Part shown: positions 34,826 through 45,532 of the stretch, one piece after another | Numbering within the stretch: position 1 is the stretch's first letter | Layout: every line of letters begins with the position of its first letter | Virus record (IMG/VR): IMGVR_UViG_3300028844_004047 | Span: 1-64,000 of that record | DNA: 64,000 nt | Origin: a virus | Direction: 5' to 3' (one strand) | Notes under the pieces: generated by a model | The model's database searches: none | What the model saw: the letters and a program-made list of their open reading frames with translations, nothing else | Told to the model about the DNA's origin: nothing | Made by a program: the position numbers and the translations under genes

Positions 34826-35953
34826 ATGAGTAAACACGCAGATATTGTAAATGAACAATACAACCATAAAGAGAGTAATTTTGTCTCTTTACAAACCCGT
34901 ATAACAGAAGCATTTAAACTTGCACCTAAGTTTGAAGCACAACTCGAAGCAGTTGTAGAAGAATTCAAAAGACGTAACAAAGATAACTGGTCATCATACA
35001 GTGACATGGAATTAGTACAAGCAATTCCTGTAGATTTTAGTAAAATACTAATCGACTCAACAATGCAACGTCCTGTTAATATGCGTCATGTATTAAAAAT
35101 CCTAAACTATTTTAGTCAAACTATGGTTATGCCTATACAAGTATATAAAGAAGGTGACAATTATATTGCTTGGGACGGACAACATACTAGTATTGCACTT
35201 TATCTTATACTTACAAAAGTATTTGGTGAACGTCAAGTAGGTACAATGATTCCTGTTAACATTTATCCAGTTAAGCAAAAATTAGAAATTCGTAGAAACT
35301 TTATTCTACTTAATGGTGATGCTAAAGAGAAACTAGATTTTATCGATACATATCGTCAAATGGTTTATGGTGCTATTATTGATAACAGTGATGATCCTAT
35401 TTGGCAAGACACTGCTAAAATTAATGACTATTTAAAAGAAGCAGGTCTATTTGCTACACACGAAAAGTTTGGTGATGATAGAGAGTCTGGTGCATTTACA
35501 TTGTTGGCTGATACTATTATGACAAAGAAGTTAGAAAAACGTAAAGACGTTGATGTAACTCGTATGTTTGCAAAGTATTGGGTTTATATTAATGATGAAC
35601 GTCCTGTACAAGCAAAAGAAGCCAGAATGCTTTATGAATACTTTGATGCTTGTTTTAAAGATAATGTAAAAGTAGATGACAAATACTTGTTAGACTTTGC
35701 ATTATTCTGTAAAGAATACTTTGAAGCAAATTGGTCTGAAACAGGATCGTTTTGGAGTAAAGTAAAACTATCTTATGAAACTTGGTATAAAAAGGCTAAC
35801 CCAGAAGAATTTGAAGAAAATGGTTTAAAAGGTTTTACTACAGAACCACGTTTTGGTGTTCCGTTTTTGATTGCACAACTTAAAAAAAGTACTAAACTTA
35901 AAACACCTAAGTACAAACACTTGTATGCAGTTGATGGAAAGGATCTTTGGTAA
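34826..35953 (+). CDS. ParB/Srx-fold (DUF262/DUF6551-like) domain protein
   Basis: IDSTMQR and YIAWDGQHT motifs; own promoter TTGACA 34743-16bp-TATTAT. Confidence 0.7.
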   Translation: MSKHADIVNEQYNHKESNFVSLQTRITEAFKLAPKFEAQLEAVVEEFKRRNKDNWSSYSDMELVQAIPVDFSKILIDSTMQRPVNMRHVLKILNYFSQTMVMPIQVYKEGDNYIAWDGQHTSIALYLILTKVFGERQVGTMIPVNIYPVKQKLEIRRNFILLNGDAKEKLDFIDTYRQMVYGAIIDNSDDPIWQDTAKINDYLKEAGLFATHEKFGDDRESGAFTLLADTIMTKKLEKRKDVDVTRMFAKYWVYINDERPVQAKEARMLYEYFDACFKDNVKVDDKYLLDFALFCKEYFEANWSETGSFWSKVKLSYETWYKKANPEEFEENGLKGFTTEPRFGVPFLIAQLKKSTKLKTPKYKHLYAVDGKDLW

Positions 35954-37682: not shown

Positions 37683-37748
37683 AAATAGGTTGACAAAAGT
37701 CGCATAATATGGTATACTATATGTATAGTTAAGAAGAAGGAGAGTTAA

Positions 37749-38468
37749 ATGTCAAAAGAAGTTTACACGTTTACAAAAGCACTTACAATCGCTTTTACGG
37801 CACAACGTTTTAACGATTCGTATCAAAAAGAAACTGTGGTTCCTTATACCATTGACGGTAAACTCACAGGCACTCCAACTGTTGCTAATAAACAAATTAT
37901 GCGATTCCTAGTAAACAATCACGATGGAATGGATCCAAACGTTATTGACTTCTTAAATAAAAACGAAAAGAAACTTCGTGTAACTGAAGATGATGAAAAA
38001 GATACATCTGAAACTATAGAATGGTTAGAAGGTTTGGCTATGCGAGCCATGGCAAGTGACCTTAACGGATTTGAATCTAAATTATATTCAACATTCGAAA
38101 AAGATGATATTTCAACATATGACTTTGGAATGATTGCAAGTATACCACAAACTGTACAACGTGTAGTTAAAAAAGAAACAACAGAAGATTTGATTATGAA
38201 ATCCTGTACAGGTGACTGGATAGGTAAAGTAGGTGATAAAGTTAATGTTACTGCTAAAATGATTTCTGGTGTTTACAGTCGTAACTATTCGAGTTACATT
38301 TATGTTGCAATAGCAGATAATAAACTTATTACTTTCTGGAGTCAAAAAGACTTTTTGGAAGAAGTTGGTAAAAATGTTAAAATTTATGCCAAAATAAAAA
38401 GGACTGACATGAGTCGTTGGTATCCTAGCATTAAAGAAACTCAACTTAACTACGTTAAAATAAATTAA
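37749..38468 (+). CDS. early protein with C-terminal OB-fold-like domain
   Basis: WIGKVGDKVNV...AKIK...TQLNYVK; promoter TTGACA 37690-17bp-TATACT. Confidence 0.65.
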   Translation: MSKEVYTFTKALTIAFTAQRFNDSYQKETVVPYTIDGKLTGTPTVANKQIMRFLVNNHDGMDPNVIDFLNKNEKKLRVTEDDEKDTSETIEWLEGLAMRAMASDLNGFESKLYSTFEKDDISTYDFGMIASIPQTVQRVVKKETTEDLIMKSCTGDWIGKVGDKVNVTAKMISGVYSRNYSSYIYVAIADNKLITFWSQKDFLEEVGKNVKIYAKIKRTDMSRWYPSIKETQLNYVKIN

Positions 38469-38545
38469 GAGGTTTACGGTACGATCTCCTTCTTAACTTA
38501 CACGAGCCCTGTCATGTTGTACCGTGTGGCAGGGTTCATTTTCTT
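38469..38545 (+). ncRNA. candidate small RNA: two hairpins with complementary loops around an anti-SD/anti-leader segment
   Basis: HP1 GAGGT/ATCTC; HP2 12 bp 38504-38515/38526-38537 plus T-rich tail; loops ACGGTAC/GTACCGT complementary. Confidence 0.55.
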
Positions 38546-38558
38546 GAAAGGAAAATAA

Positions 38559-38726
38559 ATGGCAAGATATCAACGAACAGAAGCAGACACAAAGGCCATT
38601 GAAGAATGGTTAGCAAAAGGCAACAAAATTACTGTATGTGAACCTTATGCAAGAACAGAGGATATCGGCTACATGAGTCGCTGGAAAGGTTCTAAAAAGA
38701 AGAAAAAGGTTGACAAATCGACATAA
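38559..38726 (+). CDS. SutA-like RNA-polymerase-binding small protein (55 aa, not in ORF track)
   Basis: AAGGA RBS; AIEEWLAKGNKITVC resembles SutA core FLARGGKI. Confidence 0.6.
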   Translation: MARYQRTEADTKAIEEWLAKGNKITVCEPYARTEDIGYMSRWKGSKKKKKVDKST

Positions 38727-45182: not shown

Positions 45183-45235
45183 TCGAATACGATAAATACC
45201 AGTGTAGTTAAGAATACACAAGGAGAATCGTATCT

Positions 45236-45532
45236 ATGTCAGACGTACAAAAGAAAAAAATCAACATCGAGCTAGAGGTTGATACAAACCAAGTAGATAG
45301 TAGCAAGAACCCGTTTCAATGGTTAATTCATTTAGCAAAAGCAGTAGACAGTTGGAGAATATTCCCAAGATTATTCTTAACAGTATACATTGTGTTATTA
45401 TACAAGGTTGTATTATGGTATATGGCTTTAAACGCACCGAGTATGGAACAATCAGGTTTAGTATCAATAGTAGTTGGTGCTGGCGCGGCTTGGTTCGGTT
45501 TATATACCGGAACTTCCAAAAACAAAAGTTAA
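45236..45532 (+). CDS. holin-like two-TM protein
   Basis: DSWRIFPRL plus two TM helices; late motif at 45193. Confidence 0.55.
   Translation: MSDVQKKKINIELEVDTNQVDSSKNPFQWLIHLAKAVDSWRIFPRLFLTVYIVLLYKVVLWYMALNAPSMEQSGLVSIVVGAGAAWFGLYTGTSKNKS

Follow-up and report, generated by a model that had tools for sequence, protein, structure and literature searches.

A structured RNA element in an early operon of marine giant phages is complementary to the leader of a late gene

The stretch of DNA analyzed here, called the window, comprises the first 64 kb (64,000 nucleotides, nt) of the 80-kb IMG/VR record IMGVR_UViG_3300028844_004047 (34% G+C, estimated completeness 22%). Between two early genes the window carries an RNA element in which a 29-nt strand, identical in nine distinct variants, is followed by a hairpin with a freely changing stem. 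The best partner of this strand outside the element is, in four genomes, the same orthologous translation initiation region (TIR), which belongs to a late gene encoding a protein of 98 amino acids. We favor, with evenly balanced confidence, the reading that the element, placed in the intergenic region of an early operon, is a regulatory RNA module of the antisense type that would act by base pairing and block translation of this late gene. An earlier reading of the same sequence, hereafter the original prediction, had proposed a kissing-loop RNA whose linker shuts off a whole class of early genes. The positions and motifs given there are all correct, including the anti-leader and anti-Shine-Dalgarno (anti-SD) linker ATCTCCTTCTTAACTTAC at 38484-38501. 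Its conserved, structured plus-strand RNA with such a linker also stands, but class-wide early shut-off does not hold up as the main role.

Structure and conservation of the element

Relatives were gathered in three ways: by neighboring proteins, by a 22-nt pattern in viral contigs, and by the 18-nt linker in metagenome contigs. Of the invariant bases, 18 served as the anchor of the metagenome scan, which left the loop and the ten bases preceding the anchor free to vary. The nine variants obtained from related marine phages are those of the window, L001, L002, L007, L023, L027, L031, L034 and L036. About ten further matches were unrelated and due to chance, several of them being real minus-strand gene leaders. 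The window's genome is referred to as G000, and its relatives include a 306-kb contig that is 87% complete. The element occurs as one copy per genome, also in this 306-kb genome, and no additional copies were found in any of them. A weak covariance-model match in G007 (E 0.09) was judged spurious.

The hairpin, named hairpin 2 in the original prediction, is supported by covariation. When the nine variants were realigned to the covariance model, the 12 pairs were 100% paired and 10 of the 12 had changed on both sides. These values were matched by none of 500 shuffles, and sliding the partner by 1-3 columns left a pairing of only 30-49%. Each variant also has 1-6 G-U pairs in the stem, which would read as A-C on the minus strand. 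Covariation and this strand rule together establish hairpin 2 as a genuine plus-strand RNA helix, far beyond chance. The 12-bp hairpin proposed earlier is thereby confirmed, and the covariation check across related phages found it paired in every variant.

The sequence around the stem behaves differently. Neither the strand (T/A)T(T/A)ACGGTACGATCTCCTTCTTAACTTAC nor the loop heptamer GTACCGT has changed in any of the nine variants, and the 239-amino-acid protein encoded next to the element is 46-60% identical to the window's across the same set. The reverse complement of the linker has no other occurrence in the window at 0-2 mismatches. An invariant G at -4 and U at -2 precede the 29-nt block, and the sequence here would allow a possible RNase E-type site (G/WUW). 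Two coding explanations were rejected. A small open reading frame (ORF) or stop read-through across the element is contradicted by the differing frames of the conserved block relative to the upstream stop (TAA at 38466-68) and by the lack of a preceding start codon. A gene start on the minus strand is contradicted by the G-U pairs of the stem, and no ATG, GTG or TTG follows the linker there, as the original prediction had already noted.

The heptamers ACGGTAC in the strand and GTACCGT in the loop are exactly complementary, as predicted, and invariant in all variants; for the latter reason they carry no covariation evidence. The invariant loop on top of a freely changing stem, and the single plus-strand occurrence of GTACCGT in the 80-kb record, speak for a 7-bp pairing between the two, as far as sequence can tell. 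The geometry of this putative pseudoknot is plausible: 2-3 nt precede the heptamer, which directly abuts the 3' arm, and the linker of 21 nt has to span a stem of 12 bp. The kissing-loop architecture, on the other hand, fails, as the heptamers do not both lie in loops of conserved hairpins. Hairpin 1 (GAGGT/ATCTC) is worth -4.3 kcal/mol and is present in the window and the L001 lineage alone. Nothing comparable was found in L002, L007, L027, L031 or L036, and L023 and L034 have other weak local hairpins. Since hairpin 1 is not conserved, the pairing is better described as a pseudoknot between the loop and an upstream single strand.

The T-rich tail after hairpin 2 is real in the window but is not a conserved feature. 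Three variants have a good tail (window, L002, L036), two a moderate one (L027, L031) and four a poor one (L001, L007, L023, L034). In the window, a G+C-rich stem is followed by a U-tract as expected of an intrinsic terminator, but contigs assembled from RNA libraries continue past the hairpin. Contigs from four such libraries, belonging to several studies, cover and bridge the element, which fits co-transcription with the early operon but says nothing beyond that. The discrete small RNA (sRNA) derived from a 3' untranslated region that was proposed earlier is not supported, given these bridging contigs and the poor terminator tail in four of the nine variants. A separate sRNA promoter was also considered and rejected: ATAAATT lies just 5' of the element in the window and the L001 lineage alone, and no conserved sigma-70 or late motif is present ahead of the element across the variants. 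Apart from weak intragenic sites, the plus strand between the early promoter at 37690 and the element has no further promoter-like site with 10 or more matches. Placed in an early operon and without a promoter of its own, the RNA is expected to be made early.

Searches against Rfam gave no family over the window at gathering score except four tRNAs. At E <= 10 there were only chance-level rows, such as the rpsL sRNA (20.6 bits against 37) and preQ1-II (16.6 bits against 47), and membership in a tRNA-like or riboswitch family was therefore discarded. The element has no covariance-model match at gathering score to the C4 antisense RNA (RF01695) either.

Pairing with the late-gene leader

In whole-genome scans, the strongest non-self duplex of the invariant strand forms with one orthologous TIR in all four genomes with enough sequence, G000, G001, G002 and G003 (window 45236-45532; G001rc 228184; G002rc 50719; G003rc 10275). 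Duplex energies at this site are -29.8 to -34.5 kcal/mol in the four genomes, compared with a background mean of -8.8 (standard deviation 3). The next-best sites reach -23 to -25 kcal/mol, and these are different, non-orthologous sites in each genome.

The target leader begins with a 5' hairpin, GTGTA-GTTAAGAA-TACAC (45202-45219), followed by AGGAGAATCGTATC (45221-45234), which ends 1 nt short of the ATG at 45236. After the hairpin, the order is AGGAGA(A)TCGTATC and then the ATG. The flanks of the hairpin differ between genomes in a compensating manner. Element positions 38478-38497 and 38499-38503 are predicted to pair with this TIR, and the corresponding target blocks are 45202-06, 45207-13, 45221-26 and 45228-34. 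In the first part of the duplex, UUCUUAAC(U)UAC(AC) pairs with the loop and 5' arm of the target hairpin, with 7-8 pairs in the loop. In the second part, GGUACGAUCUCCU pairs with AGGAGAUCGUAUC, giving 13 contiguous pairs, of which 11 are exact Watson-Crick, in G001-G003. The whole duplex is about 25 bp long, runs from the 5' hairpin loop through the Shine-Dalgarno (SD) sequence to position -3, and takes in about 25 of the 29 invariant nt. This includes the GGUACG part of the strand, which is matched by the late TIR and not by early leaders.

Cofolding of the whole element with the leader retained hairpin 2 and gave a net gain of -24.2 to -29.9 kcal/mol in the four genomes. Shuffled leaders gave means of -5 to -7 and minima of -10.6 to -16.7, and 0 of 100 per genome equaled the observed value. 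An exact two-block match of 8+10 nt within 25 nt was obtained by 0.8-3.5% of shuffled queries per genome.

The target has the setting of a late gene. These phages use T4-type late promoters as well as early ones: ATAAATA occurs 21 times on the plus strand and twice on the minus strand of the whole G000 record, and the copies mostly lie 15-45 nt 5' of an SD and start codon. Examples of the late motif NATAAATA in the window are found at 45192, 50996, 53936, 55903 and 62166.

A pattern scan of IMG/VR found the target-type leader solely on the four contigs that carry the element; with a loose pattern there were 81 matches, among which only the four known contigs were real. Relatives of the 98-amino-acid protein are encoded at 22 loci. 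Orthologues at 67-81% identity have short ordinary leaders and longer or different N-termini, and the element is absent within 9 kb upstream of them, where the sequence reaches that far, and throughout five of the contigs. These contigs are fragments of 7-18% without a homologue of the 239-amino-acid protein, and the absence of the element from those phages is therefore not proven. The 98-amino-acid protein is 92-97% identical among genomes whose 239-amino-acid protein is only 57-60% identical.

Pairing with both partners would account for the pattern of conservation. If the strand must match the late leader and ACGGTAC must match the loop, the loop is frozen and the stem merely needs to pair. 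About 25 of the 29 invariant nt would be explained by the late duplex, and the loop by its pairing with ACGGTAC. An antisense-type regulator is the most economical way to read this pattern.

Several observations weigh against a regulatory role in which the element acts on the late gene. In G000, the 11-nt block is interrupted by a 1-nt bulge (A) without compensation in the element. By the energies of the genome scan alone the margin is modest, as illustrated by G003, where the observed value was -28.7 and the best of 14 shuffled queries reached -27.2 on the same scanning grid. As the paired parts of element and target never vary, neither the pseudoknot nor the pairing between the two RNAs gains support from compensatory changes. 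Since the four positive genomes belong to a single clade and the other contigs are fragments, the co-occurrence of element and leader counts as one event and may reflect a single evolutionary event. The target also lies in a generally very conserved late module, and conservation of its leader is thus not special in itself. An RNA made early would have to be stable to act on a late mRNA. The RNA-library data are contigs that show no strand, ends or abundance, and DNA carry-over is possible. Finally, the element always lies directly before the SD of the gene for a 55-amino-acid protein, which also fits a purely cis role.

Proposed mechanism

From the complementarity we infer that the two RNAs pair in the cell, as well as the direction of regulation and its outcome. 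Pairing would be nucleated between UUCUUAAC in the element and the loop GUUAAGAA in the target 5' hairpin, a contact between a loop and a single strand. The duplex would then spread through the SD (AGGAGA) to position -3 and displace the pseudoknot, which opens because GGUAC is common to both pairings. Binding of the 30S subunit would be blocked, and the long duplex may be a substrate for RNase III. The RNA would owe its protection to the hairpin and to the pairing of its 5' end, and it may act either in processed form or from within the mRNA. Since the element is transcribed from an early promoter and the late gene from a late one, production of the late protein is expected to be delayed or subject to a threshold.

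The mechanism can be taken further, to a pseudoknot-gated antisense RNA serving as a timer that titrates the first late transcripts of a possibly holin-like protein and also damps the early-leader class. If this were true, the protein would appear once late mRNA exceeds the RNA pool, and early shut-off would be coordinated with a membrane event late in infection, for example the timing of lysis. We consider this extension improbable, marginally more so than the cis role weighed below.

Pairing with early leaders

The early promoters of these phages form one strong sigma-70-type class, AAAGGTTGACAGA-N-TGTTATTAT, followed by a leader of the form (G/A)TAAGTTAA...AAGGAGAT...ATG. The seven leader matches listed in the original prediction (2877, 3134, 6859, 7189, 34439, 37727 and 38744) are all real and lie just behind GGTTGACA...TATTAT promoters. 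For comparison with controls, the leader class was defined as all leaders behind GGTTGAC(A/T)-type promoters (11 in G000, 18 in the 306-kb relative, G001). In G000, the 19-nt linker pairs with the class at a mean of -11.6 kcal/mol, compared with -5.9 for shuffled linkers, of which 0 of 300 were as good; in G001 the values are -10.2 and -6.0, with 1 of 300 as good. When the anti-SD half was kept and the remainder shuffled, 0 of 300 reached the observed value in G000 (mean -8.8) and 6 of 300 in G001. Since the linker beats both kinds of control, its complementarity to the two conserved leader blocks is no accident, and the claim that it exceeds shuffled controls is upheld in two genomes.

The original prediction built on this complementarity a repressor of the entire class, in which the linker occludes the 5' end and SD of all GGTTGACA early-promoter transcripts and shuts off early translation. 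It gains from the leader consensus, (G/A)TAAGTTAA-N4-AAGGAGAT, which is collinear with both halves of the linker, from the class means above, and from the enrichment of TAAGTTAA on the coding strand; a large number of targets would also account for the invariant seed. However, single early-leader duplexes reach only -5 to -17.5 kcal/mol, and about half of the class pairs through the SD alone, as any anti-SD does with strong SDs. Nor do early leaders stand apart by raw energy: in a scan of about 100,000 segments of G001, about 6 of the 30 top sites are a leader or TIR, which has been counted in favor of the model, but many unrelated coding sites score equally. The RNA of one early promoter would moreover face 15-20 target promoters. 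One late-gene TIR also pairs 12-17 kcal/mol more strongly in every genome and uses GGUACG as well. Early leaders are thus better targets than expected from shuffled linkers but not the best partner, and class-wide repression is unlikely, although it is the most credible of the alternatives. Under the late-gene reading that we favor, the weaker pairing with TAAGTTAA...AAGGAGAT may be a secondary function or a cross-reaction.

Two individual leaders were tried as dedicated partners and rejected. The leader of the element's own operon pairs at -19 kcal/mol in the window but at -7.4 in G001, and it varies among relatives. The syntenic leader of the next gene, which is HAD-like, is missing together with its promoter in L027 and L036, where the element is kept.

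The exact 18-mer GTAAGTTAAGAAGGAGAT occurs in two unrelated metagenome contigs, L035 and L037, as a genuine leader with an ATG 4-5 nt later. Judged from these contigs, the complement of the linker is elsewhere a natural strong context for a ribosome-binding site (RBS). It resembles the T7 gene 10 RBS with its epsilon sequence, and the 16S 3' tail, which merely restates that the linker is an anti-SD.

Other explanations

A cis role would make the element a 5' element of the 55-amino-acid gene: a translational operator, a riboswitch-like pseudoknot or a coupling device. The anti-SD strand would sequester the downstream AAGGA around the clamp hairpin, under the control of a ligand, a protein or a terminating ribosome. 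Position argues for this, as the element lies 5-30 nt before the SD of this gene in 9 of 9 variants, the upstream stop codon is always 5-9 nt ahead of ACGGTAC, and the element stayed with the 55-amino-acid gene when a 67-amino-acid ORF was inserted upstream in the L002 lineage. This extra ORF lies between the 239-amino-acid gene and the element (L002 3729-3932, in the 306-kb relative), and the distance from stop to element is kept at 5 nt. Invariant unpaired bases next to covarying stems are typical of aptamers, and in the minimum free energy folds of L027, L031 and L036, UUCUUAA/CUCCUU reaches across the hairpin to pair with the downstream SD. However, this pairing is just 5-7 bp and is not predicted in 6 of the 9 variants; it leaves the invariance of UUAACUUAC and GGUACGAU unexplained, and the region between hairpin and SD varies in both length and sequence. 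The element also matches no Rfam family, with preQ1-II far below its gathering score, and is absent from more distant homologues of the 55-amino-acid protein. The 25-bp match with the late TIR would have to be a coincidence. We rate a cis role as somewhat less probable than class-wide repression.

The same complementarity could be read with the roles reversed, so that the late leader (45202-45235), being abundant, acts on RNA of the early operon once late transcription has begun. A long duplex just 5' of the 55-amino-acid gene would then trigger cleavage and decay, or activation, of the early message. Leaders from a T4-type late promoter should far outnumber one early transcript, and the duplex adjoins the TIR of the 55-amino-acid gene. 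However, the SD that it covers is that of the late gene and not of the 55-amino-acid gene, and a stable hairpin with a 5'-end pseudoknot has the features of a regulator rather than of a target. This direction ranks lower still.

Least likely of all is a plain terminator or stabilizer hairpin beside the relic of an inverted leader duplication, with a complementarity that has no regulatory function: although the window copy is the best-scoring intrinsic terminator within 10 kb, distant relatives (L015, L020) have a plain terminator hairpin before the homologous small gene, and the linker's reverse complement looks like a real leader, with identical 18-mers as minus-strand leaders in L035 and L037, a relic would not keep 29 nt and a 7-nt loop 100% identical beside 10 of 12 changed stem pairs and neighboring proteins that have diverged to 46-60% identity, four of the nine variants have a poor U-tract and two more a moderate one, and RNA-library contigs run through the hairpin.

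Features and neighboring genes

The element lies between the 239-amino-acid and the 55-amino-acid ORF, both of them downstream of the early promoter at 37690, and the coordinates of these features and of the predicted target are collected in Table 1.

Table 1. Features of the element, its operon and the predicted target in the window.
Feature	Position	Strand	Basis or remark
Early sigma-70-type promoter (TTGACA-17-TATACT) and leader of the element-bearing operon	37690..37748	+	Sequence
239-amino-acid early ORF, phrog_2319, OB-fold-like C-terminal beta domain	37749..38468	+	AlphaFold model and fold matches
Invariant 29-nt single strand TTTACGGTACGATCTCCTTCTTAACTTAC, putative antisense seed	38473..38501	+	Identical in nine variants
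ACGGTAC, 5' strand of putative pseudoknot helix	38476..38482	+	7 bp with loop, -9 kcal/mol, invariant
Hairpin 2 (arms 38504-38515 / 38526-38537, loop 38516-38525)	38504..38537	+	12-16 bp, -17 to -22 kcal/mol
GTACCGT in hairpin loop, flush with 3' arm	38519..38525	+	Invariant, complementary to 38476-38482
U-rich tail ATTTTCTTGA	38538..38547	+	Window only; variable in relatives
SD AAGGA (38548-52) and 55-amino-acid ORF (38559-38726)	38548..38726	+	Found 3' of the element in all variants
T4-type late promoter motif GATAAATA before target leader	45191..45198	+	Sequence motif
Predicted target: leader and TIR of late gene	45202..45235	+	Duplex and cofold energies
Target ORF, 98 amino acids, phrog_10198	45236..45532	+	Directly upstream of dnaJ-like gene (45576)

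The AlphaFold model of the 239-amino-acid protein (predicted local distance difference test score 84) has a helical N-terminal part and a C-terminal beta domain. The latter gives many weak OB-fold matches to SSB/RPA proteins (E >= 3.8e-3), which makes OB-fold-like a fair description. A viral scan with an alignment of its relatives P0014-P0020 found one remote homologue in a different context.

For the 55-amino-acid protein, the protein-atlas lead has a score of 0.81. None of four orthologues matched the RNA polymerase-binding domain (RBD) of SutA (PF20661) even at E <= 10. A six-frame search of G000-G002 for this domain found only another 55-amino-acid ORF in G001 (17.8 bits against a cut-off of 29.3). 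This second ORF (L054 1462-1629, corresponding to G001 289663-289830) carries the SutA-RBD-type match FLDKGGKVEKLDP and lies right after a 378-amino-acid ORF. An hhalign comparison of the two 55-amino-acid proteins gave a probability of 24%, and the only common motif is (W/F)L-x-KG-(N/G)-K-(I/V). As the Pfam model is not matched and the resemblance is motif-like only, SutA-like stays a lead. Of the two neighbors named in the original prediction, the OB-fold-like one is thus weakly supported and the SutA-like one is not, and the three-part early-to-late switch that they were to form with the element is not supported.

The -35 box AAGGTTGACAAA of the next early promoter lies within the last codons (KKVDK) of the 55-amino-acid ORF (38700-38726) in six lineages. 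L027 and L036 are without this promoter, and their 55-amino-acid ORF runs directly into the HAD-like gene.

Read by eye, the 98-amino-acid protein encoded by the target has two hydrophobic stretches and a charged tail, and it looks membrane-spanning. It matches no Pfam family. That it might serve in lysis timing is a guess.

Comparison with known systems

Functionally, the element comes closest to the c4 antisense RNA of phages P1 and P7, whose pairing with a ribosome-binding region likewise involves two blocks (PMC12197685). Both c4 (RF01695) and the element are phage-encoded structured RNAs of about 70-80 nt in which short single-stranded or loop segments pair with the RBS region of a phage mRNA. 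In both, the target mRNA is not transcribed from the opposite strand, and the RNA is cut from, or carried on, a longer transcript. However, c4 has no sequence or structure similarity to the element. It belongs to temperate phages, controls an antirepressor, is matured by RNase P, and has its target downstream in the same operon. The element, in contrast, has one hairpin and a putative pseudoknot, and comes from a virulent T4-like giant phage where the late target lies 6.7 kb away behind its own late promoter.

In T4, early read-through transcripts carry RBS-sequestering hairpins at the genes e, soc, 49 and I-TevI. These resemble the proposed mechanism in that an anti-SD withholds translation from a gene with a late promoter, which couples translation to the class of transcription. 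The T4 anti-SD, however, lies a few nt upstream in the same RNA and acts in cis, and late transcripts do not contain it. In the present case, the anti-SD belongs to a separate conserved structured element kilobases away, and it would therefore act in trans.

Base-pairing sRNAs of enterobacteria that derive from 3' untranslated or intergenic regions (CpxQ, SroC and DapZ type) share one arrangement with the element: where a coding region ends, a conserved single-stranded seed directly precedes a stable 3' hairpin. The element, however, has no conserved U-tail, which termination and Hfq binding require, its seed spans 25-29 nt rather than 7-12 nt, and those sRNAs do not feature a 5' pseudoknot. 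The sRNAs of PAK_P3 were considered as a precedent for RBS targeting and rejected, as this view of them proved wrong when checked.

T4 also has a protein device against the SDs of its own messages: RegB inactivates early SDs (GGAG) and changes the translation program (PMC3014915). RegB is an endoribonuclease acting on early SDs, whereas the element is an RNA with a late TIR as its best target. In these genomes, RegB-like sequence was found as a sub-threshold match only. The match covers profile positions 18-72 of the RegB family (PF10715) with 12-16 bits against a cut-off of 27 (E 5e-4 to 9e-3), and lies at 34958-35125 of the window, inside the ORF 34826-35953, and in the same place in G001 and G002.

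Base-pairing RNAs that regulate a virulent phage's own genes are very few in reviews (PMC4933390, PMC12197685). Temperate phages account for most of the known phage antisense RNAs, and no function has been assigned to the stable small RNAs of T4 (PMC4933390, PMC12197685). Against this background, the element (an RNA of 67 nt) and its target (a leader of 45 nt), which come from uncultured marine giant phages, form a well-defined pair that lends itself to testing. Structure and complementarity are solid, and from them we infer a regulatory function. If confirmed, this would add an RNA layer to the T4-like early-to-late program, beside RegB, RegA and the cis-acting RBS hairpins, and would mark the 98-amino-acid protein as a product whose timing matters.

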